NCBI GenBank assembly: GCA_965178125.1
Contig: OZ237748.1
Coordinates: forward strand, 682,001-746,000
Direction of reading: 5' to 3'
Length of the DNA: 64,000 nucleotides
Source of the DNA: Bilabrum cf. latius
Taxonomy: Eukaryota
Part shown: piece after piece, positions 3 through 46,058 of the stretch
Layout: every line of letters begins with the position of its first letter
Numbering within the stretch: position 1 is the first letter of the stretch
Position numbers and translations under genes: made by a program
Notes under the pieces: model-generated
Seen by the model: only the letters and a program-made list of their open reading frames with translations
Database searches by the model: none
Told to the model about the DNA's origin: nothing

Positions 3-1718
3 GACGGGTCCTCCAAGGGCTACGGGTACGTGCAGTTCGACTCGATGGAGCACGCCCAGCGGGCCATCGACCAGTTCAACGGGCTTACCGTGGATGGGCA
101 CAAGCTGGAGCTGGAGCACTACAAGCGCAGGGACCAGCGCCGCAAGGACGGGGCCAACCAGTGGACCAACGTGATCGTCTTCGGGCTGCCCCCCCAGTGG
201 GGAGACCAGGCGCTGGCGGCCATGGCCAAGCAGTCTGGCTTCGATGCGCAGAGCTGCAAGGTGGCGGTGGACTCGGAGGGCAAGAGCAGGGGGTTTGGGT
301 ACGTCAACCTGCGCTCGAACGGGGATGCGGTTGCATTCACGAGCAAGGTGACGGGGAGCATCTGGAGCGAGGACGTGGATCTCGTCAAGGCGGCGCCCGC
401 CCCTCAGGAAGAGGGCAAGGTGGCGGGGGGAGATGGCGAGAAGGCGGGGCCGGGGGGCGCAGGGGAGGACGAGGGCGAGAGCAAGGACGGGGAGGGCAAG
501 GAGGCAGCTGCTGCCCGCCCTCTGCTGGGCTCGCAGGAGTCCAGGAAGAGGGCGGGGGCTGCCGATGACGGGTCGGGGTACGTGCTGGACGCGCGGCGGC
601 ACATGACCCGCGCCGAGATCGGCCGGTAGAAGGAGGAGCAGAGGCGCAAGCTGCGGGCCTCCCGTGCCAAGAGCAACTCGAACCTGTTCGTGCGTCAGCT
701 GGACGAGGAGGTGACGGAGGATGACCTGCGGGCCGAATTCGAGGACTGCGGGCGCATCACGAGCGTCAAGGTGGCCCGGGACCAGGAGACGGGGGTGTCC
801 CGCGGGTTTGGCTTCGTGGCTTTCTCCAAGGACGAGGAGGCGCAGGAGGCGCTGCGCAAGGACCGTACCCTGCTGCGTGGCAAGCCCATCAAGGTGGTGC
901 TGCACGTGCCCAGGGACCAGCGGGCCAGGCAGCTGGCGGAGAAGAAGCGCAAGCAGGCGCAGAGGCAGGGCATGATGGCGGCTCAGGGCATGGGCATGGG
1001 CGGCGGGCCCGGCATGATGGGCGGCCCCATGGGCATGATGGGGGTGATGGGCATGCAGATACAGCCCATGATCATGCAGCGCGCCGCCCAGCTGCTCATG
1101 CAGCTCTCGCAGGAGGCGCAGAGGCAGAAGGGGGCTGCCCTGTCCATGCAGGAGCAGCAGCAGCTCATGCAGCGGGCCTTCATGGGCGCCCAGCAGGAGG
1201 TCATGCAGCAGATGTACCGCCAGCAGATGGCCATGATGCAGCAGATGCAGCAGCAGCAGCAGCAGCAGGGGGGGCAGCAGGGGGGGAGGGCCGCGCAGCC
1301 GCCGCAGGTGGCACAGGCCCAGCCCCAGGCACAGGCCCAGGCCCAGGCCGGCCAGCAGGCAGGAGCGGGTGCAGGCGCGGCCCAGCAGGCCCCCCCTGCA
1401 GTGTCCGCCTCGCAGCCCTCGTAGGCCGCCGCCTTCCTCGAGAGGATCAGGCACATGGCGCCCAACGAGCAGAAGCAGGCCATCGGCACCGAGCTCTACT
1501 CGCTGCTGCAGCGGCTCCCGTACGAGCGCCCAGCGATCAACGGGGTGGATGATCTGGAGGGGGCCATCACGGGCATGCTGCTCAATGGGTACCAGGGCGG
1601 AGACCCGGGGGCGCTCGTGGGGCTGCTGGACGAGCCAGCGACGCTGCAGAACCAGGCCAAGGAAGCTGTCTCTATGCTGGTTTCTTCTCGCGGGCTGCAG
1701 GGTGCACCTGCCCAGTGA
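3..1718 (+). CDS. PABPC: Polyadenylate-binding protein (RRMs, Q/M-rich linker, PABC/MLLE domain); 5' end outside window
   Basis: ORFs 30-629, 690-1424 and 1455-1718 share one frame and are separated only by TAG (627-629, 1422-1424). RNP1 motifs KGYGYVQF, RGFGYVNL and RGFGFVAF; PABC-like EQKQAIGTELYSLL...GAITGMLL; ends TGA. Confidence 0.9.
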
Positions 1719-2003
1719 TTCAATGGAAGCTAGCGATCTGTGCGGCAAGAGATGGATACTGGCCCAATGGTCCCATGGTTTCAATCGGCACTTGGTGTGG
1801 CATCTGGCCACGTTGCCCATGCTCTGCTCAACCAGGCCTGCAGTTGCAATCATTAAACACTGCAAGCGATATGTATTCTTATTGCAGTTCCGTACAAACT
1901 GTCCGAGTTAGTCTTGGCCCTTGGCCCTCACACTCGTACTAGAAGTAGCCCCGCAAACGCCCCAGGCCTACAGACTAGACTACTAGCAGTCGAGTGGGCG
2001 CAT

Positions 2004-6362
<4,359 letters not shown>

Positions 6363-6841: not shown

Positions 6842-8584
6842 ATGTCCTCCCGCGATCGAGTGTAGTCGCCCTCAGGAATTGGTTGTTGTAGTAGATTGTT
6901 TGGTGATGGGTCGACAGAGTGCGGCAGGGGGGTCGGGATCGGTATTATTCTTGGCCTCTGCATTACGACAGCTGTGATGATTGGGCTGCCCTCGCCCCGA
7001 GGCCATGGGTTACGAGACCGGCTGCGCGTTGAATTGGAGAAAAAAACAGAAATATTAAACTCGAAGCTCAAGCGCCGCGTTGATTAGATCGGAGAGCAGG
7101 TCAGAGAGCAGACCGAACTGCTGGCCGAGAAGGAGCCGGAGGAAGACGACGGTCACTCGATCCCTATTGCAGCACCCGATAGTCCTCTGAGTGGCTAGAA
7201 GTCGGTGCCAGTATCTAGAGGGATTTCCGGAGGGGCGTCTACCGGGCACGGTGCGAATCAGGCATCCCTGCCTGCTCCACTCGTGCTGCAGTCCGCCGCG
7301 GCGCCTTCCCGAGGCAGCGGGTCAGCCTCTATCTCGGATCTCCCAAAGGGACTGGCTGCTGGCTAGCTGTCAGCGGCTACTGCTGCGCTGCACATGCGGT
7401 TCGGCTGGCAGGGGGACTCAGGTCCATGGGCCGAGGATGACTTGCCGGAGCCGGTGCTCCCGTACGAGCTGGCGTACCCTGCTGATGCCCGGCGGCAGGC
7501 AGGCGAAGGTGACGGCGCCGAGCCCTTCCTGGACACGGATCTGCCCCTGTGGGGGATCCACCAGGAGCCGGACGAGGATTGGTTCAAGCGGGCGATAGAC
7601 AAGGCAGTGCGGTGCGAGAGGGGCGTGCAGGCAGGGGAAGAGAGTGCCGAGGAGAAGCAGGGCTCGGGGGAGTGGCCTTACAACAAGGGACACGAGTACA
7701 GGGAGGACCAGTGGCCGGGGGAGGAGGATTTCAATGATGACTTCACGCTGGTGACCACTCTGATGGACCTCAAGCGGGGCGAGGGCAGGAACGGACAGTT
7801 CAAGAGGTCCATGGGAGAGTACTTTTCCCGGTTCCAGAGAGTCATCGACAGAGGATTCAAGATGGTCATCTACATGCCGAAGGAATTCGAAAAATCCCTC
7901 CGTCTGGACCCGGGCAAGCACAAGGTGGTGCACATGACCACGGATGACCTGGAGGAGTACTTTGAGTACTACGCGAGGGCGCAGGCAGTGAGGACGAGCG
8001 ACCTGTGGGTGAGACAGGGCAAGGCGCTCAACTGGCTGTGGCACGCACCGCAGTCCCAGCTGCAGCACTACGTGCCCCTGGTGATGAGCAAGATGTTCAT
8101 GCTGCGAGATGCAGCCAGGTGGAATCCCTTTCGGTCCAGGTACCTCATGTTCCTGGATGCAGGGCACTACTGTGCGGGTGACCTGGTGCCGGGCAAGATG
8201 GGCATGTACAAGAGACACATGGAAAACGGGTTTTTCTGCACCCACTGGCCCTACGGCAGCGCCACGGAGGTGCATGGGTTCGGAGACAGGGCCTTCCACC
8301 GGTACATGGCCCAGAGGCAGGACCCCTTGCAGATCGTGAGGGGGGGCATCCTAGGGGGGACGAGGGCCAGCATCGAGTGCGTGTCGAAGGTGTACCAGAC
8401 CGCCATCCGACAGACGCTGTAGGACGGGTACATGGGAACGGAGGAGAACATCCTGGCCATCGCGCTCAAGAGGTTCCCGGGGCTCTTCGATGCATTCGAC
8501 AACAACTCGCTGGGGGGACACGGGGACAATTGCGCGTCCTTCACGGCCAATAGGCAGCGGGCCCACAAGCACCCACCGGCGTGA
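6842..8584 (+). CDS. Membrane-anchored HtrL/YibB (WlaTC)-like putative glycosyltransferase
   Basis: One frame with internal TAGs only. N-terminal hydrophobic segment VGIGIILGLCITTAVMIGL; TLVTTLMDLKRG, MVIY, YVPLVMSKMFML..AARWNPF.S.Y..FLDAG, GGILGG, GYMGTEE (after TAG 8420); ends TGA. Confidence 0.65.
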
Positions 8585-8967: not shown

Positions 8968-11900
8968 ATGCGACAGTATGAGGCAGAAGCAGCAGCGGGA
9001 GCACGCCACAGCACTTGGGTACGGCACGTGCAGCAGGACGAAATGAGGGGCTTGCTAAAAGCGTCTGCCCAGCATGCATCCATTGTTTTTAAATAGGATG
9101 TGACAGCTGCATCAAGAAAGGCAAGTCGGGGATCGTAGCTTGCGTTGAATCGCCTAGTTGACCCCAGATGGGCTTCTGCAACGGCCAGGCCAGACACGTC
9201 CGGCGGCGCAGCAACACCGTACGTATCTAGATTTAGTAAACGTTATTTAATGGCCAGAATGCCAAAGGAGACTGTAGCAGTGAATCCCGATGACTACTTC
9301 GACCCCAGGGTGCATCGCGCCGACGACAAGGGCCTGCCTCCCATGGACCGGGTGCGCGTGCAGCTCGACGAGATCAGGGAGAGGAAGCGACTGGCACAGT
9401 CCGGTGGTAGCAAAACATTGGACGACGTAAAGCAGGGCCCGCTGGGCACTCTCCGCAACCTGCTCCTCCGAAATGCGAACTCTCCCGACCGCCTCCCTCC
9501 CCGAGACAGGTACCGCCGCAGCATCCACGGGACTGCGGATGATCTGCCCCCCACATTCGGGCTGCCCACCAGGCCCGCGCTAGAGGACAATGCCACGCAG
9601 CATCGCGATGCACTGGGCGATGCCTCAGGCAAGGGCACCGGCAAGATGCCCCGTGGGCAGTACTACGACCCTACCGAGGAGAGGGGCGTGGCTGAGCTGG
9701 AGAGGACCATGCCGCATCGACTGAGACCCAGCGACGCCATGAGGAGATTCTCGCTGTTCACGATGCCTCCCATGAAGATGATACCGAGCTAGAAAGGGGA
9801 GAAGTGGGGCGGCGCACAGCACAGATGGACCTACTAGTAGAGCCAGGACCCTGAGGCTGCATCGCGGGCAGTGGAGTAGCCCACGCAGGCAACCGCACAG
9901 GCACAGGGTCTGTCAGATCCTGAAGGTGACGATCCCAGCAGAGACGAACCCCCTGCCAGTGGCCTATCCGGACCCTATGACGCGCTGCTGGCCTCCTCGA
10001 GGCGCCTGCAGGACTCGAGGGAGGAGCAGCAGAGGCATGCCGCGGCAGTGGCGCTCATGGGCACTGCAGGGACAGGCCCCGGGCTATTCGACATGGTGCC
10101 GCTGCAGGAGCATGTGCGGACAGGGCCCCGCGATTCGCCAGAGCAGGAGCTGCAGGACACGGCTGTAGCACACGGCGTGAGGTTCATTCTGGACGGGGAG
10201 CAGGAGCAGGAGCAGGAGATCTAGGATAAGGGGCGGGTCCAGGCGAGGGGAAGGGGTGGTGATGGTGAGGGAGCGATGGGAGGGTCCAAACGGCCCGGGC
10301 ATGCGCTGCGAGAGGCGCAAGGGTCCTCTCGAGGAAGGCCGCACGCTCGCATGTTCGATGAGCAGGCAGCCGCGATCCAGAGGAAAGAGGCCGAGAGGCA
10401 CAGAGGGAGGGGCAGGCAGGACCCCTCCCACCCGCTGCACCGCCCCAATGCCGGCGAGATAGGGACATCCGGTGTGAGCCAGCTCAACAGGAGGGGAGAC
10501 ACGAGAGCAGCCCCCAACTATGCCACGCGAGAGGGGAGCGGCATGATACGGGGCACGCTGTCGGTGGGGTATGAGGCCGTGCGGGAGGCAACAGCGTGCG
10601 CCCGTCGGTTCGGGAGCATCCTGGACACGCGGTACATGGACGATTTCGTGGAGCTGCAGATGGTCTTCATGCCCGAGTTCTACGAGCCATTCGTGGCGGG
10701 TATGCAGGGGGCCATTGGGAGCAGCTTTCACTTCGCGCCAGAGGTGAGCCCGCCGCTGTTCGTGGCGCAGATCGGCAAGTCTGTGAGCGACATGAAGAGC
10801 GAGAAAGGCGCCCGGGTGGTTGGTGGACAGGAGCAGGGGCAGGAGAAGAAGCAGGGGCGGGCGTCGACGGCTTCAGCTCAACCAGCTGCTTCTTGTTCAG
10901 GCGGTGCAGCAAATAGCAAGCCATCGAACGCTTCCAACCTTCAAGCAGCGGCAGCAACGCCGCAACCGGCACCAAACCCATCAGCCGCCTAGGGCACATC
11001 GGGTGGCAGGCACGTTACACCTGCCGCGCAGCTGTTCAAGCTTAAGGAGCTGCAAGCCACCGAACAGATGCAGGTCCTCGTGGACGAGAGGTTCCGGGAG
11101 CTTGCATCCAAAGGGGCAGAGCACGACCTGAGAACATACATGAAGTGGGGCGCTCCTGTGGAGGTAGACGCGCCCGATGACCCGCAGGAGGACGTGGAGG
11201 CCAGCAAGCTCGCGTCCAGGGTGGGGCCCAGCCGCACCCGCAAGCGGAGCCGAGGCAAGAAAAGCGCTGCACAGGAAATGCTGACGGACCGCCGCAAGCG
11301 GGTGCAGCACCTCGAGAAGGAGAGGCGGGCCATGATCCGCATGGGGGGGCCTGCTCCCGAGGACCAGAGGCCCCGCGTGTATCCCGCGCTGGACGGACAG
11401 GACGAGGAAGGGCACACGGCGCTCATGCTGGCGGCGAGCCACGGTCACCCAGCAGCCGTGCGAATGCTGCTAGGCATGGGTGCCAAGGCGAGCAAGAGGA
11501 ACAACAAGGGCAGGTCGGCTTTGGACCTGGCCCGGCTGCAGTCCAACGCAGCCTCGCTCGCCCTGTCGTTGCATGCCCAGGGGGCTGCGGACCGCAAGAA
11601 AAGGGCGGGACAGTGCGTGGTGCTGCTGGACCAGCGCAGTCTCCTCCAGTGCGCCAAGGACGGCGATCTCCGGAAGGTCCGCCGGCACATCGACCACCTG
11701 GGAGAGAGCCCCAACCTGACCAATCGGTATGGGCAGACCCCTCTGCACTTTGCTGCCATGAACCGGGACTTGCCCATGGTGCAATTCCTGGTGTCGAGGG
11801 GGGCGGATTTGGGCAGGAAGAACAACCTGGGGCAGTCGCCGGACGTTCTCCTGGGGGACGAAGAGGACCGGGAACTGAAAGAGGCACTGCTGCAGGCGGT

Positions 11901-12678
11901 GCATCGGGGTCAGGCTGAGAGAAGGAAGCAGGAATCCAGGGAGAGGCAGCTGGCGAGGGCCCAACAGGAGAGAGTCATGAAGGAGGAGAGGGCGCTGAGG
12001 CAGCTGCGGGCACTGACGCGGGGCACCACCGCGGCGAGGAGTGTGTTCCCTGCCCTGAGGGAGAGGGAGAGGGAGCGGGAGAGGGGCGCGGGCGCGGGGC
12101 AATGGGCCTCCGAGGGTTCGCCGTAGCTCCAGCAACAATCTAGCGGTGTCGCGCCCCTGCCTTTCTTGCCTGGGGGGCACCCCGAGTCTGCTCCCGACCG
12201 GGCCAAGCGGCTGGCGGCTTCTCATGGATCCATGGGGGGCAGCATGGTGGCGATGGAGCGGGCCCGATCCAAGCTGGCACACAAAGGGAGGAAGAATGGG
12301 GGTGGCATCGGGCTGCTGGGAGGAAAAGAAGATGTCTGGTCCACCGCTGGATTGGACAAGGATCCTGCCCTTCAGCTGAGCTGGACCCGGCACGCCACTC
12401 GGTTCGCAGACTCGATGGCGCGCGCGAGACAGGCACAGGTGCAGCGGAGGCGCGTGAGGGGGGCGCTGCAGGAGGGCAGGGGGGAGATGACTGCAGGGGC
12501 CACTGCCTATGTCCCCTTGGAGGGGGACCTAAGGGTGCAGCGGCAGCGGGGGGTTCTTCTGGCCACCGTGCACGCCCCCGAGCTAGAGGCAAAGAGCCAA
12601 GCGCCAGACCCGCGGGACCCAGCCTTCGAGGCGTGGTTTGCCATGCGGTTCGGGACAGTGGCGGAGGAGGACGGCTGA
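8968..12678 (+). CDS. Large ankyrin-repeat protein
   Basis: ORFs 9145, 10276, 11068 and 12166 share a frame and are joined by TAG only. Ankyrin motifs GHTALMLAASHGH, GRSALDLA, GQTPLHFAAMNRD; ends TGA. Start codon tentative. Confidence 0.75.
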
Positions 12679-13355: not shown

Positions 13356-14250
13356 ATCGCATGGGTATAACTAGACGAGGTCAAGCATGAAGGTTTGTCT
13401 CCACTGACCGGGGTTCACTGCCCAACTGCAACCGCAAGTGCAGAATGCGGGGGTACGAGCATACGCGCTTCACATCAGGCTGAGACGCCATGATGCGATT
13501 ATCATTAATTGTGTGCATAGAATAGTTGCGATTTCGCACACTGATTACATCTTAACATTAGTATCAGTCAAGGAGAGCATGTCTATTGCGTCCATCGCTG
13601 GAGTGGGCAAGACCGATTCGTGTTTTAGCTTCCTAACGACCTCGCTGAGCTCGTAGCGGACAACCTGAGTTTACAGATAAACACAATTACCTGTCTTAGC
13701 AAAGAAAGAATGCTGGCCTCTACAGGCTGGCTGTCTGTTTGTGCATCAATTAACTCATATTCATCACCGCACAAAGCGGATGATCCCAATCGTGCCACGT
13801 TCCCACGTTTTGACGGCTACAGGGGATACGGCCCGCGCACGAGTTACGGTTGCATTAAATTTAAACGAGCATGGCGATCCGACTTCATCATTGGATCATA
13901 TCGGTCGCTGCCGTAGTTGCGGTGAGACGCCAACCTGCGGCTGGACCCGTTAGCTTATGCACGCGCGATTGTGGAAACAGTACTGGCTTAAATTGCAGCA
14001 TGCGTCTATTGTACGAATTTTCGCATACCATTTTTTTCTATTCTGGCATTGCCAACTTGATTAAACGCCGAATTCCTTCGACAGAACGAGGTGACGGGGC
14101 TTGTCGTCCAGCCACCCATCGCCACCCACTACCTAGTCACGCATCAATTGCTGCCCTGCACGCGCTAGGATAATGTCATATCATGATACTAATTTCGAAA
14201 TTATTATACCCATCGAATCATGTTTAAGCCTGTTATGTCCGCAGAATACG

Positions 14251-15564
14251 ATGCTGCTACTGATGTACGCTCCCTTCGGCCCCCAGATCCACCCGAGCTT
14301 CCCCGGCGCTGATGCGCTCCGCCCCGAGACCACGTCTGTGCTCGTCCCGGCCGTCATGTCCTCTGCTTACTTGCTCTTCTTGGCCGCCACCCGCATGGCC
14401 TGCGGGCCCATCTCGGAGCGGGCCGGGCTGGACAAGGGGTCCAAGGAGCCCTCGTGGCGCGCGCATGAGGACAAGCAGGTGCACCAGCGGGTGAACAAGA
14501 CATTCGCCAAGGAGGGGCAGCGGGCTGCAGACAAGGCCGCAGAGGAGCTTGCCGCCGATCTGCCCGAGCGCACCGCAGCCAGCGTGCAGGGCCGGGCGCA
14601 GGCTATGCGTGCAGCCGCTTCCCGCGCTGTGCTGCTTCCCGAGGCCAAGATCGTGTACAACGCCTACCAGGTGCTGATGAACATCGGGATGGTGTCATTC
14701 TTCCTGTACGGTGTGTATGACATGGTGCGGGCCAGCAGGGACACTCCCGAGGGCAAGGACCTCGGGTGGGTGCAGGGCGTGCTGCAGCTCTCGCAGCCCT
14801 TCCACGTGGTGCACGGAGAGCCAAAGACCAGCGGACTGCCAGGGGGGCTGGCCCCCAGCGGCTGGCTGCGGTGGGCCTTCTGGGTGCACTACACGAACAA
14901 GTTCGTCGAGTATGCAGACACTGTGTTCATGGTGGCAGAGCAGCGCTGGCAGCAGGTGACCTTCCTGCACACGGTGTGAGTACAAGAGGAGTGATATCGT
15001 TTGGGCGGGGAGGAGGGGGAGGGGGGAGGGGGGCACAGTACGAATGCCCTGCTTTCCGCCCAGGCTGCTGTACCGTGCATATACCCGCCATCGTTCGTCC
15101 TTTCCTTTTCGTTCCTTCCTGTCTCCCGGCGCAGGCACCACTTCATGATGGGCTGGGTGTGGTGGACTGGCTGCACCATCCCCGCAGGAGCCGCTCCGTC
15201 TTTCTTCAGCGGTGCCTTCAACTCGTTTGTGCACATCGTGATGTACACGTACTACCTGGTCAAGGCGGTGACCCAGCGCGACGTGTGGTGGAAGGAGGCC
15301 GTGACGTGGCTTCAGCTGGTGCAGTTCGTGTGCGTGTTCGCACACGCTGCATTCTACATGGTCACAGATCCAGAGCACAAGATTTTCAGTAGCACGCTGA
15401 CTCTTCTGGCAGTTGGAACTTCTACCTTTATGTTTTTCCTGTTCTCGGATTTCTTCGTGAAGACGTACTGCAAGGGGAAGCGACGCGGCAAGGGAGGAAG
15501 CGATGGCCCGCGAGCGCAGCGGTCGGGATCTCGCGCGAATGCGACAAAGCCCAAGGAGCAGTGA
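14251..15564 (+). CDS. ELO: Fatty-acid elongase (ELO/GNS1-SUR4 family), copy 1; intron 14976-15134
   Basis: YNAYQV, NKFVEYADTVFMV, histidine box FLHTVHH restored by splicing GTGAGT...CAG, NSFVHIVMYTYY, TWLQLVQF, LFSDFF..TY. An upstream exon is possible (CCGCAG just before the start). Confidence 0.88.
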
Positions 15565-17411: not shown

Positions 17412-17611
17412 NNNNNNNNNNNNNNNNNNNNNNNNNNNNNNNNNNNNNNNNNNNNNNNNNNNNNNNNNNNNNNNNNNNNNNNNNNNNNNNNNNNNNNNNN
17501 NNNNNNNNNNNNNNNNNNNNNNNNNNNNNNNNNNNNNNNNNNNNNNNNNNNNNNNNNNNNNNNNNNNNNNNNNNNNNNNNNNNNNNNNNNNNNNNNNNNN
17601 NNNNNNNNNNN
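17412..17611. other. Assembly gap (200 N)
   Basis: Run of N. Confidence 1.
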
Positions 17612-19334: not shown

Positions 19335-19394
19335 ACAAATATTGAAGATGAAAATATTTTTTCCCCGACCCTGTCCCTGACTTTATATTAGATA

Positions 19395-28500: not shown

Positions 28501-30702
28501 GAGACAGCCGGTCTGCAGTAGGACCGAGAGGCCGCCCGGCGGCAGGCAGCACAGGCAGAGCGCCGGTCAAACCGGGCCCGGGTGCAGCGTCAGCAGCTGG
28601 CAGCCGAGGCCGCCCGGCTCAAGCGAGAGGCCGAGCGCCAGCGGCGCATCGAAGCCCAGAGGCTAGACATTAGCGTACATGCCTCCAGGATGATGCTGGA
28701 CGACGGGGGTAACCCGGTGAAGGTGCATGCATGCAGAACCGTGCTTGCTGATGGAACCGTATCGGAGACGGAATTCCGATTTCGCGCCCTGGAAAAGATG
28801 CGCACTGACTTGGTCCAGCAGCTGGTACGAGAGGCGCCCCCTGCCCCTGGGTCGTAGCTTACTTGGGAAGCGCGGCTGCCACAGGTGCCGCACAGGGCTG
28901 CAGCGCACCGGTTGGCTGTCTGGATGGGAATCGGGCGAGCAGCTCTCAGAACGCCCGCAATGCTGGCGGAGAGACGCCGTCAGATCGAACTGTTCTTACA
29001 CGACCTGGAGGAGTTCGGGCCTAGGGTAAGGAAGGCAGAGCCTTTCCTGAATTTCCTCGGGGTGCAACGATCGGCCCTGCTGCAGTCGGCAGAGCTGGCA
29101 GGAGCTGCGGGGGCGGGCAGCGGCGCGGCTGGCGGGCGCATCGTTGCGTTTCGAAAATACGACCCAACCAAGGTGCAGCTCCTGCGGTCACTTGGCGGGG
29201 GTGCCTTTGGTGACGTATTCGCCGCCACCTCTGCCGAGCTGCCAGGCGTGCGCTTAGCCCTCAAGCGGGCCCGCATCGGGGGCACTGCCAAGCAGCAGGC
29301 AGCAGCACGGAATGCACTCGCTCGAGAGCTGGAGGTGCTGTCAAAAGTCAGCCAGCGCATGCACCCAAACGTCGTGCGAGTGTTCGGGCTGGTGGTTGGC
29401 AAGGACGAGAGAGGCGAGGAGGTGGCTCCCGGGATTCTGATGGAGCACGTGGGTGGAGGTTCTCTCGACAAGGCCATCCGCAGGGGTGTGTACAGCCGCA
29501 TGGATGAGGCATTGAATGCAGCGGCACAGGTGGCGGCGGGGCTTGCGCACCTTCACTCCGCGTGCGAGGTGCTGCATCGGGACCTCAAACCGGAGAATGT
29601 GCTGCTGGCATCGGGTCTCGGTACGGAGGTCAAGCTGACCGACTTTGGAGTGTCAAAGGAGCTTGACATGGTGGATACTGCTGCCGCAACTGGTGCCGGT
29701 GGCACTGCCACCGGCATGCATGGTCCGGCATCGGGAGTGATGTACAGCGGCGGCGTCTCTGCCTACTTCCAGACAGATTGGCGCTATGCCCCGCCCGAGT
29801 CGGTGAATTGCTCCGCTGCAGCCGTGGCTGAGGTGCACGCGCACGCGGTGCAAGCCGAGGGGGGCGTTGCCACCGACGGGGGCCCTGCGGCGGGTGTGCA
29901 TTCTTCTGTGCTTCCATCTTCACGGATCTATGGCCGATCAGGTGATGTTTTTGCGCTAGGGCTGACCCTGCATGAGTTGCTGAACGGGCGGCCAGCGTTC
30001 GCACCCGAGATGGTTACAGTACCAGGATTGCGGGGAGCGGTCGGCTGGGATGCTGACTTCGAGCCTGACCCAGAGGCGTTGGATGAATCCGCTGCAGCCT
30101 CCTCACGGGCAGGAAGGGACTCGCCTGCGCCATCGGGGCCGCACAGAGGCACGCTGTGGGACATCAGCGTCGGCGCATGTGTCCAGAACGCCTCTGATGC
30201 CAAGCAGGCCGCTCAGGACGCCTTGATGCGCGGTACGGAGGCGGTCGGGTCGGTGCAGCAGCGGCTTTAGTTGGCCGCAACGTCGGCTGGCTGGGATGAA
30301 GCGGTGCCTCGTGAGGTAAGAGAACTTGTCTTGGCTTGTCTGCAGCTGCGGCCACAAGACAGGCCCTCTGCCGACATGGTACGGGACAAGTGCTGGGAGC
30401 TGCAGCGGCGAGCGACGGTGGCGGCGGAGCTAGCTGCGGGCGGTCGCCCGTCAGCACCAGACGCATCCGATGCGCATGCGCCGGACAGCGGGAAGCGGCT
30501 AGCTGCTGCTAGACGCGGGGGTGGTGAGGGTCCTCATTTGACTAGGGGGAAGGCGGTGGTGGGGTCCGAGAGAGGAGGCAGTCATGGGGTGGCGGTGAGT
30601 ATTAGGTACCAGGCGACTCACAATCACACACCTGGAGGGCACCAGGCGACTCAAGGAGGTCCAGCTGTGGAGTACCAGCCGATTGACGGGGAGGGAATGT
30701 GA
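25599..30702 (+). CDS. Ankyrin-like repeats + coiled coil + PX-like domain + protein kinase; 5' half frameshifted (pseudogene or assembly errors)
   Basis: 27637-30702 is one frame with TAG only. Kinase motifs GGGAFG, ALK, HRDLKPEN, DFG, YAPPE, DVFALG. PX-like LPQVP...LAERRRQIELFL...FLNFL. Upstream LLLQHGADPNVK, ELIRGGADP, LMLASGADP; frame changes at the C-run 26788-26798 and ~27630-27780. The 5' boundary is uncertain (TAA at 25944). Confidence 0.65.
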
Positions 30703-35604: not shown

Positions 35605-38600
35605 TCACACCCCGAACGCGCGGGACACCCACCGCTGGAGCGAAGCCACGCCGGCTGACCCCGCGCTGCCGCCGGTCGCAACCGAATCGTCGTCACACCC
35701 GGGCAGCTCCGCCAGCCGCATCGCGAACGCCATCAGCGCCCGACCCAGCGCGCGGCGCCGTGCGGAACCGATGGGCGGGTCAAGCGCGGCGCACCCAGCC
35801 GCCTGCGCCGGCAGCGCCGCAGAAGCCTCGATGCCTGCCCTGGCGCAGACCTCGCGGAGAATGCGCGGCGCCAGCAGCGGAACCAGTCTCCGCCGGAGGG
35901 TGTCGAGGTCCTTTGCAGCGGCCTGGAGGGCGGGGGACCGGGCGAGATCCACGGATGGATCCACCACCGGTGGAGTCGGCCTGGAGGACGGTGCTGGTGC
36001 TGGTGCTGGTGCTGGCGCTGGTGCTGGTGCTTCAGTCGTCCCGCCGTCATCGCCCCCATCGCCAGCTTCCGATTGCTTCTCCTTCTCGCCATCCAACACC
36101 TACCCACCCTCACTCGTCACACCACTCACCCCCTCCCCCCCCCCCCTCCCCCTCCCCCTCAAGGCCCCACGCAGCACCCGCGTCCCCCTCCGCCTCCAAC
36201 GCTGCCGCCGCCCGCCGCACCCGGCCCGCCGCCACCTCGCCCAGCCGGTCCCGCAAACCGGAACTGAGTGCTAGAGCCGACTCTCGCGCGGCGCCCACGG
36301 CGGAGACGGCGTCCCCCCTGCCCTGCGGAACCAAGGGCCCGAGCGCGGCGCCGGCCAAGCGCAACGCGGCGGCGAGCGCCTCGGCGGATCGCAGGGCAAC
36401 ACCCACGTGCCGCGCGGTGAGGTTCCGCACGGCACCAGATCGCGCGGCGCCGCCCTCCTGCACGGCAAGACGGGTGGACTCCACCCATGCGGAACCTATT
36501 TGCGCGGCGCCGCGGGCGCATGCAGCCGAGAGAGCGCCCGCTCCAGCGGCGTCCAGAAGCGGAACCGGCGCCGCGACCACCTCGCTCGCACTCGTCACAC
36601 CCAAGGCCCACCCCCAAGCCCCGCTGACTCCCGCCCCGCGCCCAGCCGCAGCCTCGAACGCCCCGGCGGCATCAGCGCTACCATGCGATGCACCTGAAGC
36701 CCCCCCTTCACCACCCGGATGGCAATCCACCCCCTGCGTTAGGCCCACCTCCCCCAGGGGGGGCATGGCCGCCGCCACGGCATCGTGGATCCCCCGCACC
36801 GCCACGAGCCACCCGCCGCTGACTCTGAACCTGCGGGAGGCCAGCCCCTCCTCGTCCTCGTCTTTCTCTTCTTCTTCTTCGTTTTGGGAAGGGGGACTAG
36901 GGCGCTTCGGATCCTGTGCTGATGCTGCTGGTGCTGACGATGAGGATCCACCGGTGGATTGGTGCTTGCTTCCTCCCTTGCCCCCTGCCTCTGGCGCCCC
37001 TTCCTCGCCCCCCCCCTCTGCCCCGAGTTCCGCGGGGGGTGCCGGCCTCGATGCACCACCGTGCGATGCACCCCGCAGCAGCTGTCCCAGCGGCGGCACG
37101 CACACGAATGACCTCGGCCAGCGAGCCTGGGACGAACGTTCCCCCAGCTCGCACAGCCGCGCAGCTGCCGCCTGCACCAGGGCCTCCTGCTCCCCTCCCC
37201 CTCCACTCGTCACACTATCATCCACACCGCCCATCCCGGCGGCCCCCTTGGCACCCCCGGCCCACGCCGCCAGTCGCGCCACCATGCGCTGCACCTGCAC
37301 GGTCACGGGAGCCCTCCCCCACCCGTCCGCCGACACCACCGTCCTGACGCTCGTCGCCGCGCGCTCCGCGGCTGCGGAACCGGTTCCGCAGAGGGCCTCC
37401 CGCGCGGCGGCGAGAAGACCCCCCGCGGGGCCTTCTGCGCTCGGGGGCGGCAGCGGAACCAGCAAGCGGACGTGCGCGGCGCCGACGGTGGGTGTGGCGC
37501 CGGGTGCCAAGGCAGCGGCGGCGGCACTGCCGTGCAGTGCACCTTGCATCAGCCACACAGCGCTGTTCCCTCCATCATAGCCCCCTTCTTCTTCTTCTTC
37601 TTCACCCCTTGTCCCGCTCGCACTACCATGCGATGCACCCTGCGACACCGCCCGCGCCACCCGCGCCAGCGCTGCCGCCGACACCCACGCGGATGCAGCG
37701 TCGCCCACGGCCGCCCTGGACTCCGCCGCACTCGTCACACCCCCGGCAGCAGCAGTGCCTCCGCGCCCCACCCCCTGGGTCCCCCCTTTAGGCCCCCTCC
37801 CCCTCCCCCTGAGCCCCAGCAGCAGGCCCATGTGCCTGCAGGCCTCGGCCGCAGCAGCAGCCGCCACGCCCCGCGCCCCCGCCCGCACCCGAGCCGCCCA
37901 GGAAGGGGACAGCCACGGCTGCGGAACCTCTGCCAGGAATTGCGCGGCGCCGATCCCGGCCTCGTCTGTCTCCTCGGCTACGGACGCCTGGCCCTCACTA
38001 CCGTGCAGTGCACCCTCCCGCAGCGCCAGCTCCAGCGAAGCGGAAGCCCCGAACGGCAGGCGCAGCACCCGCCCCGTGCTCTCGCTCGCACTCGTCACAC
38101 GCAGAGACACCACCCCCTCAGTGCACGGCGCCCTGGGCACCCCTGCTCTTGTTGCCTCTGCCGTGGCACTTTGTGCGCCATCGTGCGATGCACCAGCATT
38201 TGCCAGCTCCACCCTCACATTGAGGACGTCCGGTGCAGGCCCGCCACCGGTGGATCCGGTGGGCAATCCACCGGTGGATCGACGCAGCGGTCCCCCGAGC
38301 CTCCGAGACTGCGACCCACCCGCCCCCGCCCCCGAGACCGATGCCGTTGCCGCCGCTACACCTCCTTCCGGCAAACTCCCGCCACCCATCCCCACCATCC
38401 CCACGGACCTTCTCGCAGCCCCCAGCAGGTGCACCAGCCCCCTCGTCCTCGCCCCCTCCCCCCCGGCCCCCGATTCCGATTCCGAGTCCTGTGCATCCCT
38501 CCCCTGCCTCCTACCCCTCGCCTCGCACTCGTCACACACGTCCTCCAGCATGGCCACCATCGCAGCCACGCGGCCCAGGGAGCCGCACAGCGCCCTCGAC

Positions 38601-41600
38601 AGGCGCCTGGCCACGCGGGCGAAGGTCTGAGACGAGAGGGCTGCGATGGCGCTCGCACTCGTCACACCAGCAGAAGCACCCCCCGCGCCAGTCCTCCTCC
38701 CCCTCGCACTCGTCACACTCTCCACCGCCACCGCCTCCCTCACCTCCGCCCTCACCCTGGCCCTCGTCTCCTCCTCCAGCCGGCGGGGGAGGTCGCCCAG
38801 GGCGGCGAGCAGGGAGCGGGCCGCACCACCGTGCGATGCACCCAGCGCCTATGAGGCTCCTCTGGCATCCCCGGAGGCAGACGATGTCCCCTCCGGCGCA
38901 CCTGCCGCACTCGTCACACCTCCAATGGCCGCACACGCGGCTTCGGCCCGCAGCAGCAAAGACGTCCTCGCCAGGAACACGGCCCGGGCGCTCTCACGGG
39001 GACCAGGGGAACCTTCGCTGGGGGTTCGCTGAGGGGCCGCACCGGCCGAGGCGAGTCTCCCCTCCATCCCCGTCTTTGTTTTCGTCTTCGTCTTCGTCAT
39101 TGTCCTCTGTTTCCCCATCGCCGCCACCATGCCCCGAATCCCCCGCGCCACCCCTGCAGCCCCCTCGTCCGCCCCCGCCACGGCCCCAGCCGCATCCAGG
39201 ATCGCCCGGAGGCCCCTGAGGGACCAAGGGGGGCAAGAGGCGGAGGCCCCGGAGCCTAGTTTCGATTCCGAGTCCTCGAGCTCCGCGAAAGCACTCGTCA
39301 CACTGCCGGCGTCCAGCCACAGCTCCGATACGACCTCGACTCTAGCCGCCGATCCAGCCCCCCCTGCACCGGAGCGCTTGCGGGGGGCGAAGATCGCACT
39401 CGTCACACCGCCTGACCGCATCCCATCGCCGTTGAGCTCCCCTGCAGCGATCGAGGGCAGCAGCAGGCGCCGCCCCGCCCCCACAGCACTCGTCACACCC
39501 GACCCAATCCCCCCGTCGTCGTGCCAGGCCTCCCCCCAGGCGCCCCACGCGGCCGCGTCCGCCCACGCACTCGTCACACCGCGGGCCCCACCCCCACCCG
39601 CTCCTCCCCCCAAGGTCCCAGCCCCGCCTTCGGCCCCCGCACTCGTCACACCCCCGCACAGGTCCAGAGCCGCCCTCGTCCACGCCCTCGCCCCGTCCTC
39701 CACCGCCCGACGGGCCGTCTGCGCGGCGCCGCGCCTGATGGACTTCCCTGCGGAACTTCTCGCCGCCGCCGCGACAGCCTCCCGCTGCGACTCGGAGCTC
39801 GCCGCCAGGGAACAGCGACCGCCACTCCCCACACTCGTCACACCCACCACCGCCAGCGACCTCCAGGCCGCCAGGCAACACCCCAGGGCGGGGATGCCTC
39901 GCCCCGATCGGAGCAGCCGACCCGCCGCTTTGGCCAGGTCCCTCGCCGCCCGCAACCTCCGGACGGCCCCCACCGACGCTGCGACCCTCTCCAGCCTCCT
40001 TTCGGTCGCAACCATCCTCAGCCCCGGGAGCGCCCCCCTCCGCCTCGCCATCCGGACCGAGGCGCGGGCGGCGGCACAGGCGGCGCCAGCCCGGGCCGCC
40101 ACGTGGGCCAGCGCATCTGCGGCTCCCAGAGCACGGAAGAGCCGCCTGCGCCGGGCGTGCAGGGCCAGCACCAGGGCGGCTTCAGCCTGGTCCTGCCACT
40201 CCACCAGTGGACCATCCACCGGTGGAGTGTCAGAGGCACCGGCCCCGGTCCTCTTCTTCCTGCTGCTGCTGCTTATGCTGCTGCTGGTGGCATGTTTGGA
40301 ACCGGACCTGCGGCCTCCACCGGTGGATTTGCCACCTCCCTATGCCTCCCCTTCCCCTCCATCCCCACCCTCCCCTTCCTATTGTTCTCTGGCCTGTTCT
40401 AGTGCCAGCCGGACCAGCTCCACCCACGGGGCTGCCTGCCGCCGGGACGCAAATGCCCTGACCCCGCCTCTGCCCCTGCCTCTGTTCCTGCTGCCTGCAG
40501 CCCCACCCCCTCTTTCCGACTCCGAATCGCGGTCCGGCTCCGGGTCCCTCAGCGCCGCCCGCGGGAAGGAGAAGGGCAGCAGGGACACGGCGCCGTCTGG
40601 GGGCGGCCGGGCCACGCCCACCTCGGTGTGACGAGTGCTGGCGCTTGTGCTGGTGGAGCCTCCCTTGCCCTCTGCTCCTCGTGACGCACCGTCGTGCGAT
40701 GCACCCAGCCCCTGCTGCTGCTCCTGCTGCTCCACCGCCAGCTGACGGCCACGCTCTACCTCCGACAGCGGAACCGGCGCCGCGGCCAGCGCCGCCGCCA
40801 CTCGCCCCGGTTCCGCACGCGCCGCGCGCCAAAGCGCCGCTGGCCACTGCACCCCCAGCCCCACGGGCCTCCGGGTTCCTATACCACTCGTCACACCGGC
40901 TCTCCAAGCAGACACGGCCCCCACGGCCCGCCCCACCGCGGCGGCATCCGCGGCGTCTTCCCTGGCCTCCCTCTCCGCACCACCGTGCGATGCACCCCCA
41001 CCGGCCCGCCGCCCGTCCGCCGCTGCCTCGAGCAGCATCTCGAGCTGGGGCTGGGCCCCCGCACCACCGTGCAGTGCACCCTCACCACCCTCACCGCCCG
41101 CCTGACTCCCGCTCCCACTCGCCACACCACCACCATTCCCGCTCGTCACATCCCCATCCTCCTCGTCCTCCCCTCCATCCACCCCCGGATCCAGATCAAG
41201 CCCCCCCCACGCACCCACCCCAAGGCCGCTCCACCGCCGCAGCTGCCACCCCCTAACCGGTTGCAACCTCCCTCCCTCGCCGGGTCCACCACCACCCTCC
41301 CCCTCTCCCGCCGCGCTCGCGCCCCCGCCGCGGCGATATTTCGATTCCGGGTCCCTCGCCAGCACCCAGGCGCCCTCGTCACCCACCAGCACGCCCCGCC
41401 GGCCCACGCCACCCACACTCACCCAGCTCCTGCCGGCTGCCCCACTCGTCACACTGCTCCTATTTGTTCCCCGGTGACCGTTGCCCATCTTAGAGTCAGT
41501 GGGCAGCGGGAGCACGCTCCGGACCCTAACCGCACGCAACAAAGAGGACAAATCGGACGCCACAGCCGGACGCACCCGCGCCAGGTCCCTCCCCCCGGCC

Positions 41601-43078
41601 CTTCCACTCGTCACACTCCCCACCGCCAGCAGCCCCGCCCCGCTGCCCCCCCCCGGACCCCCGTTCCCCGCCCCCGCCCCCGCCAGCGCCGCTCTCAGCC
41701 TCCTCCTGTGGGCGTCCAGGAGTGCGGAGGCACTGGCCAGCTGGCCCACCGATCCACCGGTGGATGACGACGAAGAGGAAGACGGCTGGGGGCCCGCGGA
41801 TCCACCGGTGGATTGTTGGTGACCCCCTCCGCCAGACGACCCATCTCCGGCGCCACGCATCCCTGCGGAACCTCCCCTTGGCAGCACGGGGGGTGCCACT
41901 GGAGCGGGCAAGGGCACGCGGGCCGCGGCCGACAACGCCGCCTCCAGCTGCTCGGTTCCGCCGGCGCCGCGCGTCGCCGCCTCGTCCGCAGCGGTGCGGG
42001 CCGCCCGCCACACCGCCTCCGAGTGCGCGGCGCCCCCCTGCGGAACCGGCACGAGCGCGCCCAGCCCCTCCAGCGCACCCCCCAGCGCGCCCATCATCGA
42101 CCGCTGGACCGGTCCCCGACCCGGAGCCGAAAATGGCGCGGGCACGACCCCGTGGACCTGTCCCCTCCCTCGGCCTCGGCCCTGAGGCGTGCTAGGGGTG
42201 TGACGAGCGCCCCGCAGCACGGCGGCGGGCATCGGCGACCCCCTGCCCCTGCCCCTGCCACTGCCGCTGGCCCCCCCGCTGGCACTGCCGCTGGCACCGG
42301 CATTGATATGACCATGGGTAGCGTTATTGCCAGTGCTGGAACCCCCGCCCGTCCCACCAGTCCCGCCGCCAGCACTCGCAGTCGACGCGGCACGGAGCGG
42401 GGAGGCACCTGCCCCCGCGAAACCGACGGCCGCCCCGCTCACTGCCGCCAGCAGCCCCGCGGCCCTCGAGGCAGCGGCGGCAGCGGCGGCCTCGTCCCCC
42501 TGGGAGGGGAAGGGGTCCTGGAGGAGGGCTCGGGGGGATAGGGAGGTGTGACGAGTGAGATGGCCGGCAGGTTTCGCCCGTGCTGCTGCTGCTTGCTCTG
42601 GGGCAGTGGCTTGCCCGGCCGCTGATGGGTGCACTGCACTGCCATTCCCGCGTGCCGGGGGAAACAGTGGGAGTAGTTGATCGGGAAGAGGCGGCTGGTG
42701 GTGCTGCATTGCACTGCGGTGCATATTCGGTGCCCTGCGTTGCAAAAGACCTCCGGGCCTCTCAGCCTCTGCCGTTGGCCTGCCGGCACCAGCGGCTAGC
42801 TGCCCGTTTTGACCCGCTGCAGTGGCCGTCGCGGCATGATTAGATTTAATTCCAGCCTGCCCACCGTCCCTGGCCTGGCTGGCTCCGCCTGTTGCCGGGC
42901 CGCTGCCTGCTTGCATGGGCTGGTCCTGTGAATTCGACCCAGCTGTTCGATCAATCGCTGCATTATCGCTATCTGCGACACTTGCATCGTTTTTATTATT
43001 ATCATCTGAAATAGTCGCAGATTCTCGCCTTTCGGCTCGTTTCGGGCTTGCTGCGGTCCCTGCCGTAGCTTGCGACAT
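35605..43078 (-). CDS. VPS54: Highly divergent Vps54-like (GARP complex) protein with G/A-rich low-complexity expansions
   Basis: 43078-36110 is one frame with TAG only; probable homopolymer frameshift at the C-run ~36135-36146. DQAEAALVLALHARRRRLFRAL...GLRMV...LLRSG..IPAL resembles Vps54_N; LAVQEGGAARSGAVRNLTARHVGVA resembles Vps54 QLVLGAGA...KSITAKHLALA. Confidence 0.55.
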
Positions 43079-43942
43079 TTGCTGGCGGCGACAATATCGC
43101 CTAACTGAAGGTCGAAGAAGTCGACACTTACAGCCCACCGTTTAGTGCCGAAATGTTTAATATAAATAAAACAGAAGAAAGTAGCTGACCAGCAGAATGA
43201 GCTCTCAAAGGCTTCAGGTCTAATCTTTGGCATGTGCCGGTTCACGAACGTTCCACATGAAGGCTCCGATCGAAACAAGATGTCTCACGTAGGTACAGGT
43301 GGCGCCGCTGCAACCCGGCATAGTATACCTTCGGACAAGCATGGTGAGCGTATCTGTTCAGTAGATCTAATACATGTATTAATCAGTCCCATGTTTTGTT
43401 GATGTTTGGGTGACATTGAGATTGAATCCGAAATGCTAGACATGAAGCACCTGAACAAGGGTACATGCTGATGTGCGCAGTGCATGACTCCATGATTGGC
43501 GTAGTATTGCACGCCGGTTGTTTGTGACACAAGTAATGATGTGCTTTGCGGCGCTTGTGCTCGATTTGGACGCAAACTACGCGCTTTTGCGCTGGTTCTT
43601 CTGCGGACAGAATCCACGTAGCGACGTGGCCGGCGGGCGACGGGGCTAGCCCAGGTTTATCTTCATTCCATGATCGGCTTTGTCCTTGTGTGCGTTTTAA
43701 ATTATAACTTGGTAACGATGCGATATGTTCGATTGCTTGAACGGTGCCTTGTATCGCGGCTTGGTTCCCAGCTCGACTGCTGGGCTCGCTGCCCTCTGGC
43801 CGGCCCGTCCGTCTCTCACTGCGGAGGAGGAGGAGGAGGAGGATCCCACGCCACCACGACCCATTCCCGCGCTGAGACCAAGCGACAAACCATAGTCCAT
43901 TTTTCCCTACCCCTCTTCGGCTTCCAATCCCCCCTCCCGCAG

Positions 43943-44278
43943 CGCGTGACCGGAGCCTCTCGATCCCTGCGCCGCCTCGTGCCCCTCGCCGACCGTGTGC
44001 TGGTCAAGCGGGTGGCCCAGGAATCCAAGACCGCCGGGGGCATCCTGCTGCCCGAGGCCTCCGCTGGCAAGAAGAACGAGGGTGAGGTGATTGCCGTTGG
44101 ACCCGGAGCCCTAAACAGGGAGGGGGAGAGGATTGGCATGCAGGTGGCTGTTGGCGATCGCGTGCTCCTGCCCGAGTACGGTGGGCACACTGTGAAGCTG
44201 GACGGTGCCGAGGACGAGGAGCTGCTTCTGTTCAGGGACGAGGACATCCTGGGCAAGCTGGAGGAGGGGAGGCAGTGA
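43943..44278 (+). CDS. HSP10: 10-kDa chaperonin (HSP10/CPN10), main exon; first exon not resolved
   Basis: LVPLADRVLV, KTAGGILLPE, GEVIAVGPG, GDRVLLPEYGG, LLFRDEDILGKL; polypyrimidine tract plus CAG acceptor at 43940-43942. Confidence 0.92.
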   Translation, partial: RVTGASRSLRRLVPLADRVLVKRVAQESKTAGGILLPEASAGKKNEGEVIAVGPGALNREGERIGMQVAVGDRVLLPEYGGHTVKLDGAEDEELLLFRDEDILGKLEEGRQ

Positions 44279-44645
44279 GCCCGGCTGGGTGACTTGGGGG
44301 GGGGGGGGGGGTTGTGCCTCTGTTACGATGTGGAATAAGGGCACTGAGAAGAGGATGCGGTTGATCGTGCCATGGTTTGAACAGTCTGATTTAAAGTCGT
44401 TGACACACCCCTGCCTGGAGGTAGCACGAGTGTACAGAACTCCACAGAGCCACACTAAGTCGGAGTCACAAGATCATGCATCTATACAGGATTGTCTGGC
44501 CAACGCATTGATACGTCCGGACCACGGCCAAGACCGGGTGACTTCATAGCCCCCGCGTAGCATGTCATTTTGATCACATGAATGGATCGTTCTCTCTTGG
44601 CATCGGATCGTTGGCACAAGTGTACTGGAGCGAAGACCGCCTCCC

Positions 44646-46058
44646 TCACTTCTCCTAGGACTGGTTCAAGTAATCGAACACGGCCGTTTCCATCGGGTTT
44701 CCCTCAGGAGGATACCCAGTGATCGGAGTATCCTCATACTAGACCGGGTATGGATTTGTCTGCCAAACTTCTTTGCGCGAAGCCTGCAGCTGCAGGGACA
44801 GGGTGATGTCATATAACTTCAGCTACTCGGCCGTGGGTCGCATGTAGGACGTGTTGATGCTCCACAGATACGCCCCGCTGTCCATGTCCACGAGGGCAAG
44901 ATCTCCCGTGCGGTCGCACTCCTCCCCCGTGATGACGAGTGCGCACTTCTGGGCCTTGCCCCGAGTATCCGTCTTCCAGCTGAGTTCTCCTCTGTAGTTC
45001 ACCTCCACCAGGTTGCAGTCGTCCTGCATCGTCAGAGTGGCCTTGCTGTCGCCCCCCTTCCGGAGCGACTGCCCCATGGCCAGCACCTGAGTGTCCCACA
45101 GAGTGCGCTCCTTGGCGGCGGGTCGCTTGGCGAGCTTCTTTGGGTCGCATCTCGGAGCCGATTTGATGGCCGCCTGCAGCGCCTTCATCTTGCGACCATT
45201 GCCGAAGGTCTTGTCGTCGTCAGGACTGTCCAGGTCCGCCGACCCCGCAGACCACGCGATAGCACCCCCCTGCTGGAACAGGACGGCATTCCCGTCCCCT
45301 TGCAGACGAAGGGTGTCTGCACCCGGGTCCATCAGCGAGGTAGGCACCCGCCAGATGTACTGCCCGGAGGCACTGTCCACGATGGCCAGGTCGCCCTAGG
45401 TGTCGCACCCGTCCCCCGTGATGACGAGTGCGCACTTCTCATCGGTACCCTTACCCCTCGTGTTGGTCGCAAACACGTCCTTGCCCCCTCGGTACACCAC
45501 CAGGTTGCAGTCTCTCTGCATGCGCAGCTCGGCCCCCTCGCCCGCCTTGAGGGCGGCCCCGGCTTGCAGCACCTGCCCCGGAGACAGCACGTCGCCGTCG
45601 GTCACTTGGTGGTATGACGACTGCATGGCCCCTGCATCGCACTGCAGGTTGTGCACGTCCTCACGCACCTCCAGATCGTAGTGGAAGAGCCCCAGCCACT
45701 TAGGTTTGGGACCAGGCGAAGAATCTGTTTGTGTGCTCCACAGCAGCTGCGCGCCTTCCTGGAGGAGGACGACATTGCCGTCCCCCTGGACCAGAAGAGT
45801 GTCCGCCTCGGGTGTGAAAATAGAGGAATGCACTCGCCAGAGGTACTTGCCTGTATCCGTGTCGATGATGGCCAGGTCTCCCTGCGTGCTGCACGATGCA
45901 TCCGTCATGAGCAACGCGCAGTGGCCGTCATGCTCCTCGCGGTTACCCGAGACGAACAATTCCGCTTTTCCATTGGCATCAACGACCAGTTTGCAGTCGT
46001 CTCGGACCCGCACCTTCGTCGAATCCTTGGACAAAGCGTTATCGGACGAGACGTGGGT
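44646..46058 (-). CDS. Bulb-type (GNA/B-lectin) repeat protein; 5' part cut off by the virophage insertion
   Basis: QxDxNxV motifs VQGDGNVVL, MQRDCNLVVY, LQGDGNAVLF, MQDDCNLVEV in three internal repeats. The frame stays open (TAG only) from the element boundary to TGA 44646-44648. Confidence 0.75.

Follow-up and report, generated by a model that had tools for sequence, protein, structure and literature searches.

The question raised by the 64-kb stretch of DNA analysed here (contig OZ237748.1, positions 682,001 to 746,000; referred to as the window) is what the codon UAG means to the organism from which it comes. Protein-coding frames are interrupted by TAG both in a GC-rich part, which carries eukaryotic genes, and in an AT-rich, virophage-like integrated element adjoining it. 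An earlier note, made from the letters alone, had proposed a nuclear code in which UAG, alone among the stop codons, now stands for glutamine (Gln, Q). Of the explanations considered, we favour one, with a probability of about 0.87, in which UAG would serve this Cafeteria-like lineage as a regular codon for glutamine, with UAA and UGA as the sole stops. The evidence was drawn from this single window and from a 2.3-kb metagenome contig of a relative (L005), on which an HtrL ortholog is followed by an ankyrin ortholog, with the synteny of the window retained.

In-frame TAG and gene ends in the host DNA

The GC-rich part extends from base 1 to about 46,100 and contains eukaryotic genes as judged by Pfam. 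Its GC content lies between 0.54 and 0.73 in consecutive 4-kb intervals up to 44 kb, falls to 0.45 in the interval spanning the junction and is about 30% in the remainder. As part of the best explanation, these 46 kb are nuclear DNA of a heterotrophic, stramenopile-like eukaryote that resembles Cafeteria; among the named homologues of the HtrL-like protein encoded here, the closest is from Cafeteria roenbergensis, with 62% identity.

Codons were counted in eight host open reading frames (ORFs), namely those for PABP, the C2H2 zinc-finger protein, the HtrL-like protein, the ankyrin-repeat protein, a protein kinase, a 2,322-codon ORF, a lectin and Cpn10, which together comprise 7,850 codons. Before their ends, the coding frames contain 40 TAG, no TAA and no TGA, along with 464 CAG and 100 CAA codons, so that the earlier claim of genes interrupted by TAG alone is borne out. 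The two off-frames of the same ORFs contain 34 and 37 TAG, 16 and 19 TAA, and 118 and 92 TGA. TGA and TAA are thus kept out of the long host frames, while TAG is present at neutral density. ORF length was also considered as a test of the code and was rejected for the GC-rich part: when TAG is read through, the longest frames grow from 920 to 2,343 codons, yet the total gain in frame length is larger still when TGA is read through. Because ORF length is indecisive there, the case rests on homology across the TAG codons and on the frame statistics.

Homology across a TAG is best seen in the HtrL-like gene, where the TAG at position 8420 (amino acid, aa, 527) falls within the block AIRQTL-x-DGYMGTEENI. 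This block aligns without gaps to 18 homologues, and downstream of the TAG strong conservation continues right up to the C-terminus, which lies at the same place in the closest homologue. Since the conserved flanks are ungapped, a stop, an intron and a pseudogene are excluded at this site. In the kinase gene, matches to solved kinases cover the N-lobe as well as subdomains IX and XI, all in the same frame, and TAG 30268 lies between these two subdomains. Similarly, the RRM_1 (E=4.4e-35) and MLLE (E=9.3e-09) domains of PABP share one frame across both of its TAG codons, and the alignment with yeast Pab1 continues across the first of them (aa 209). Taken at the level of sequence, these cases support the view that TAG is translated in the host genes.

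A conventional explanation would leave the standard code in place and attribute the interrupted frames to pseudogenes, unspliced introns, or errors of sequencing or assembly. Introns do exist in this DNA, as each of two tandem ELO genes (fatty-acid elongase) has one of the GT-AG type, 159 nt long, in frame and containing a TGA, and the TAG codons are known from DNA only. Against this stand the ungapped conservation around TAG 8420, which places that codon outside any intron, and the finding that TAG is the sole interrupter in the 7,850 codons. Assembled contigs from four read sets were also compared with the window; they are of uncertain kind and give no sign of transcription, splicing or transcript ends. 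Those of the source run (X1) show no differences where they match the kinase gene and the 2,322-codon ORF, and shorter contigs from the other runs match parts of the stretch between 33 and 45 kb. Furthermore, L005, an independent metagenome contig of a relative, also has in-frame TAG codons. We consider an unchanged code extremely unlikely, and indeed close to refuted.

As to the codons that end genes, the earlier note had placed stops at TGA 1716, 2004 (minus strand), 8582, 12676, 15562 and 44276, and at TAA 17320 and 33120 (minus strand). All of these are found at those positions, as are all the TAG codons that it located; the ORF ending at TAA 33120 has weak ankyrin matches only and is a doubtful gene. 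Ten host gene ends could be evaluated, those of the eight counted ORFs, all TGA, and those of the two ELO genes, giving nine TGA, one TAA and no TAG. That UGA has been kept as a stop is indicated by the HtrL-like and ankyrin-repeat proteins, whose C-termini at TGA coincide with those of their homologues. That UAA has been kept is indicated by the ELO paralogues: both proteins have the C-terminus TKPKEQ and end at the same residue, which is followed by TGA in copy 1 and by TAA in copy 2. Across the host and viral ORFs, no in-frame TAA occurs in 12,458 codons, while TAA ends 14 of 26 genes. These data support UAA and UGA as the stops that would remain, and the only ones, in this organism.

Stop codons may also have a double meaning that depends on context, as in Condylostoma and the karyorelictids, and UAG might by analogy be read as Gln inside genes and still act as a stop at some gene ends. 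The sample for such a behaviour is small, with merely 26 gene ends examinable in the window (10 host and 16 viral), and in the lectin gene a TAG precedes the TGA stop by three codons, so that the true end of this gene cannot be told. None of the 26 genes, however, ends at TAG. In addition, TAG is as frequent in the coding frame (40) as in the off-frames (34 and 37), and there is therefore no sign of avoidance. An ambiguous UAG is for these reasons improbable, and we continue with UAG as a regular sense codon.

An integrated element in the same code

The AT-rich part of the window contains a virophage-like element. Its left limit was set at the start of a multi-copy contig of the element, and its right end is cut by the end of the window. 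Among its products are an integrase with an rve domain (E=9.6e-08) and a chromodomain (Chromo, E=4e-07), a capsid protein (MCP_V20_C, E=3.1e-07) and a DUF5872 protein. An ATPase and a protease-like ORF were recognised by weak matches, and a putative penton protein was assigned by its position only. No polymerase was seen in the element because it is cut by the window end. Searches of IMG/VR gave no match for the capsid protein, and no close relative of the element was found in that database.

Within the element, TAG (67 codons) accounts for 38% of the Gln codons, next to 103 CAA and 6 CAG. The 16 complete ORFs end at TAA in 13 cases and at TGA in three; none ends at TAG, and none contains an in-frame TAA. 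With TAG read as sense, the five longest frames have 631, 569, 484, 385 and 330 codons. The longest frame in the standard code has 232 codons, as it has when TGA is read, and 381 when TAA is read. Under the standard code all 17 ORFs would be broken or shortened, which is a further argument against that code. One TAG even lies within the Walker A motif of the ATPase. Judged from its coding sequences, the integrated element is thus written in the same altered code as the neighbouring host genes, and it shows this independently of them.

The element also helps to distinguish a change of UAG from a joint change of UAG and UAA. Ciliates often change their code, and a code in which both UAA and UAG stand for Gln (the UAR code, NCBI table 6) is used by many ciliates, hexamitin diplomonads and some ulvophytes. 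The window resembles this code in that a stop has become a Gln codon and that TAG occurs in Gln-rich contexts. Such a code could be concealed by the GC-richness of the host genes: there CAA is rarer than CAG (100 vs 464), and sense TAA would therefore be expected to be rare. The element, however, prefers A-ending codons (CAA 103, CAG 6), and if UAA were a Gln codon, in-frame TAA should be common in it. None is present, and TAA instead ends 13 of its 16 complete ORFs. The ELO pair, with TGA or TAA after the same final residue, argues in the same direction, as does the observation that reading through TAA extends ORFs far less than reading through TAG. UAA is sense in the UAR code and ends genes here, so that the organism is not a member of that group. 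Reassignment of both codons has, in our view, hardly any chance of being correct, and the retention of UAA as a stop, as proposed in the earlier note, is upheld by the ELO genes and by the element.

Several structural features accompany the left end of the element. The transition from GC-rich to AT-rich DNA is marked by a perfect 19-nt inverted repeat (46059–46077 and 46141–46159) that encloses a perfect 34-nt palindrome (46088–46121). In the non-coding left part of the element (46341–47547), a repeat unit of about 105 nt occurs five times, each time with an inverted pair of the type GCCCGAAATTGCGG ... CGCAATTCTGGGCG. These repeats are possibly promoter or terminal-repeat units.

The amino acid read at TAG

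The strongest statistical evidence for Gln at TAG is provided by the integrase of the element. In an alignment with 39 homologues, where the background frequency of Q is 4.6%, 12 columns contain a TAG of the window, and three of these are well conserved. In these three, Q is found in 39 of 39 homologues (aa 191), in 27 of 39 (aa 308) and in 31 of 39 (aa 457). Related integrase loci were also sought at the DNA level in IMG/VR, where an alignment of 40 sequences proved too diverse and one of seven sequences gave only four, distant, loci. At aa 191 the codon is CAA in all three loci covered, at aa 457 it is CAG in two of four, and at aa 308 a Gln codon occurs in none of the four. No in-frame TAG is present in the matched part of these four loci.

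Among the host genes, the amino acid can be read from the relative and from repeated copies. The HtrL-like proteins of the window and of L005 share 83% identity over 344 aligned positions. Opposite TAG 8420, in identical context, L005 has CAG, and CAG also stands opposite the ankyrin TAG at 9136. Overall, the alignments of the window with L005 contain 11 columns that involve a TAG, and its partner is CAG in four of them. The lectin gene offers an internal control that the earlier note had pointed out and that is present as claimed: repeat 1 reads CST-Q-GDLAI with CAG at 45882–45884, while repeat 2 reads CDT-x-GDLAI with TAG at 45396–45398; the third repeat has ACG. Other copies of the lectin in the four read sets have G at 45398, which makes the codon CAG on the coding strand. 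The assignment of UAG to Gln in the earlier note is thus supported from three sides: by CAG at two sites of L005, by CAG in the lectin copies and by Q in the conserved integrase columns.

Several observations weigh against a code with UAG as Gln or reduce the evidence for it. Of the 12 integrase columns, nine are variable; none of these nine has Q as its commonest residue, and three consist mostly of gaps. Where the alignments with L005 are reliable, CAG is the partner in two of six columns, and the other four, at variable positions, have GTG, GTT, GCT and AGC. The HtrL column at TAG 8420 is itself variable: four of the 18 homologues have Q there, the others R, M, S, T, G or A. The lectin TAG at aa 362 aligns with Thr in both other repeats. 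The host TAGs fall for the most part in regions of poor conservation or low complexity, which is why few host columns are informative. The two PABP columns (aa 209 and aa 474) are uninformative because the search returned only distant PABPs, with partial matches of at most 46% identity, and the 'shorter' ankyrin search gave three matches, none of which spans a conserved region at a TAG column. Within the 64-kb window neither a tRNA nor any other RNA family was found, and the junction between host DNA and element is bridged by none of the contigs listed.

A seemingly supportive result had to be discarded as well. Two database proteins have Q at the sites in question: P0121 shows Q at all 12 integrase TAGs, and P0001, which starts at GTG, shows Q where the DNA of L005 has TAG. 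From this pattern it follows that the gene caller probably read TAG as Q. At least part of the gene calling behind the protein databases searched was thus probably performed with a table in which TAG is Gln, and a Q of this origin is no independent evidence for the code.

The variable columns could be taken to mean that UAG encodes a residue other than Gln, or a mixture of residues; for reassigned stops elsewhere, Leu, Glu, Tyr and Lys are known. The distribution in the HtrL column (Q in only 4 of 18) would fit such a reading, as would the four of six reliable columns of the alignments with L005 in which the partner of TAG is a codon for V, V, A or S. All TAG columns that are well conserved, however, are Gln columns (the integrase with 39/39, 27/39 and 31/39), and no other residue dominates any conserved TAG column. 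Both orthologous replacements with conserved flanks are CAG, as is the codon in the lectin copies. It is very unlikely that a residue other than Gln, or several residues, are inserted at UAG. Among the observations that, according to the earlier note, would speak against its proposal are conserved genes that end at TAG and a different amino acid dominating the TAG columns; within the window, 0 of 26 genes end at TAG and no residue but Gln dominates the conserved columns.

For UAG as a glutamine codon, a mechanism can be envisaged. A tRNA-Gln(CUA), derived from tRNA-Gln(CUG) by a single change in the anticodon, would read UAG but not UAA, and its inability to pair with UAA would explain why UAA was kept as a stop. 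An eRF1 with weakened recognition of UAG would let this tRNA win the competition. TAG codons would then arise mainly from CAG through C-to-T transitions.

Gene content, relatives and known systems

The features of the window are collected in Table 1.

Table 1. Genes of the GC-rich part and the integrated element, with in-frame TAG codons and stops (positions in the window).
Feature	Coordinates	Strand	Remarks
PABP gene	3..1718	+	5' end cut by window; 2 in-frame TAG (627, 1422); stop TGA 1716
C2H2 zinc-finger gene	2004..6362	-	9 in-frame TAG; stop TGA 2004-2006; zf-C2H2 E=1.1e-14
HtrL_YibB-like gene	6842..8584	+	5 in-frame TAG; key TAG 8420-8422 (aa 527); stop TGA 8582
Ankyrin-repeat gene	8968..12678	+	9 in-frame TAG, including 9136-9138 (aa 57); stop TGA 12676; Ank E ~1e-16
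ELO (fatty-acid elongase) paralogue 1	14173..15564	+	two exons; GT-AG intron 14976-15134; stop TGA 15562
ELO paralogue 2	15892..17322	+	start uncertain; Pfam ELO; stop TAA 17320
Coiled-coil protein kinase gene	27499..30702	+	8 in-frame TAG; stop TGA 30700; Pkinase E=9.2e-34
2,322-codon ORF, family unknown	36110..43078	-	3 in-frame TAG; stop TGA; 0 Pfam families
Cpn10 gene	43670..44278	+	0 TAG; stop TGA 44276, 6 codons past domain; Cpn10 E=6.2e-29, aa 103-196 of 202
Three-repeat B-lectin-like gene	44646..45908	-	4 in-frame TAG; stop TGA 44646; B_lectin E=6.6e-11
Virophage-like integrated element	46141..64000		~30% GC; right end cut by window; 17 ORFs, 67 in-frame TAG

Of the gene names in the earlier note, Pfam supports PABP, zf-C2H2, HtrL_YibB, Ank, Pkinase and B_lectin. 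The name Vps54-like, given there to the 2,322-codon ORF, had to be abandoned, as the ORF matches no Pfam family and a weak atlas lead scored 0.78, below the line of 0.9. This ORF has a GC content of 67–72%, and short peptide motifs (GVTSA, GASHGG) recur all over it. In the read sets, many contigs connect distant points within it, which suggests dispersed short repeats inside the ORF. The zinc-finger gene contains long Gln/Ala/Gly microsatellite tracts and hexamer repeats. In the HtrL-like protein the Pfam domain spans aa 300–551, and the C-terminus of the ankyrin-repeat protein matches the end of the database protein P0273.

The ELO genes (14173–17322) represent a tandem duplication. The two copies are almost identical, and so are their 159-nt introns; they diverge in the 5' region and have different stop codons. 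The intron of the first copy was read from the sequence; positions 26–119 of the Pfam ELO model fall in exon 1 and positions 121–240 in exon 2. Upstream of its first ATG, the lectin ORF continues without a stop to about 46100. Across the lectin region (44500–46000), the summed contig depth is far above that of its neighbours in all four runs and many variant contigs occur; the high depth and the many variants suggest a large multi-copy lectin family.

Between the ELO genes and the kinase gene lies a telomere-type repeat, (CCCTAA)n, at 19394–20290 (about 150 units), with about 20 more units at 21714–21837. It is flanked by tandem repeats with periods of 155 bp (18414–19334), 331 bp (20508–21626) and 53 bp (21845–22294), and a gap of undetermined bases (N) at 17412–17611 is situated near this region. 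The stretch represents an interstitial telomere or else a point at which chromosome ends were joined in scaffolding. A candidate ORF with 150 TAG codons at 19388–20344 was rejected, since it is merely this telomere-type repeat.

How far the altered code extends can be seen from three related contigs. L005, from a close relative, has in-frame TAG codons of its own within conserved stretches, and its HtrL gene ends at TGA; the trait is therefore common to at least two related genomes that were assembled independently. L013, a contig of the Cafeteria clade, encodes an HtrL that is 68–83% identical to the Cafeteria protein. Its four matched exons lack TAG, and at the homologous C-terminus the first stop encountered is a TAG; the RNase HII gene of L013 has no TAG in 864 codons. 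In L009 (51% identity), TAG directly follows the conserved C-terminal residues of HtrL. These two more distant relatives thus look, from their gene ends, as if they use TAG as a stop in the standard code, and the change therefore appears limited to the lineage that includes the window and L005.

Two features would make this code of wider interest, the lineage of the host and the adoption of the host code by a virophage. In the full-text literature, which leaves most subscription journals and supplements outside, we found no report of a nuclear code change in a stramenopile or bicosoecid, and an earlier description is possible; within the same limits of coverage, no virophage with TAG as a sense codon was found. 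A code change is mentioned in neither of two 2026 preprints on Halocafeteria; Halocafeteria seosinensis was also rejected as the source of the window, since its reported GC content is 46.8%, compared with 54–72% here. We see an even chance that this is the first nuclear code change in stramenopiles, of recent date and within a Cafeteria-like lineage, and that a whole host-virus system has moved to the altered code, which would confine its viruses to hosts with that code.

If the code is as proposed, the change would be shared with L005 and absent from L013 and L009, and it would be a further independent origin of a UAG-only code, in a supergroup without a reported nuclear code change. By inference, the helper giant virus of the element would have to use the same code, and the change would form a barrier that confines such viruses to altered-code hosts. 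A virophage in the code of its host would offer a way to test directly whether the host range of giant viruses and virophages is narrowed by code changes. The organism, which is free-living, is closely related to the culturable model Cafeteria, and its standard-code relatives are at moderate distance, which makes for a useful natural pair in which to study the joint change of tRNA-Gln(CUA), glutaminyl-tRNA synthetase and eRF1. On the practical side, gene calling with the standard code will truncate a large share of the proteins of this genome.

The element has counterparts in the EMALEs of Cafeteria burkhardae (PMC8547959). According to passages of that paper, these are likewise AT-rich, virophage-like elements in a GC-rich genome of the Cafeteria type, and they share with the element an rve integrase with chromodomain, an ATPase, a protease-like ORF and a major capsid protein of virophage type. 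They differ in that the element described here needs TAG to be Gln, whereas these passages do not mention a non-standard code.

Codes that separate the meaning of UAG from that of UAA are rare, and those described in passages of PMC5304391 and PMC11687900 show that the two can be mechanistically uncoupled. The legend in PMC5304391 that surveys variant nuclear codes lists fungi, Amoeboaphelidium, oxymonads, Blastocrithidia, ulvophytes, ciliates, a rhizarian and Iotanema, and no stramenopile. The phyllopharyngean ciliates Hartmannula sinica and Trochilia petrani read UAG as Gln and prefer UAA as the stop, and a scheme in which tRNA-Gln(CUA) decodes UAG has been argued for UAG-only ciliates as well (PMC11687900, in part). 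The window agrees with these two species in that UAG alone would be Gln and UAA firmly a stop, and differs in that its host is stramenopile-like and not a ciliate.

The closest parallel in the codon table is the fornicate Iotanema spirale, in which, as stated in passages of PMC5304391, UAG encodes Gln, UAA and UGA are stops and UAA is the primary one; the description of this species in the earlier note agrees with that source. A tRNA-Gln(CUA) together with a change in eRF1, reported to affect the GTS motif, was proposed there as the mechanism. The code of the window corresponds in its assignments to NCBI table 15, and like that of I. spirale it would turn UAG alone into Gln and keep UAA as a stop, with a similar mechanism to be expected. 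The differences lie in the organism, a Cafeteria-like stramenopile and not a metamonad, in its GC-rich genome, in TGA as the main host stop (9 of 10 ends) and in the kind of evidence, which is genomic here and was transcriptomic for I. spirale.

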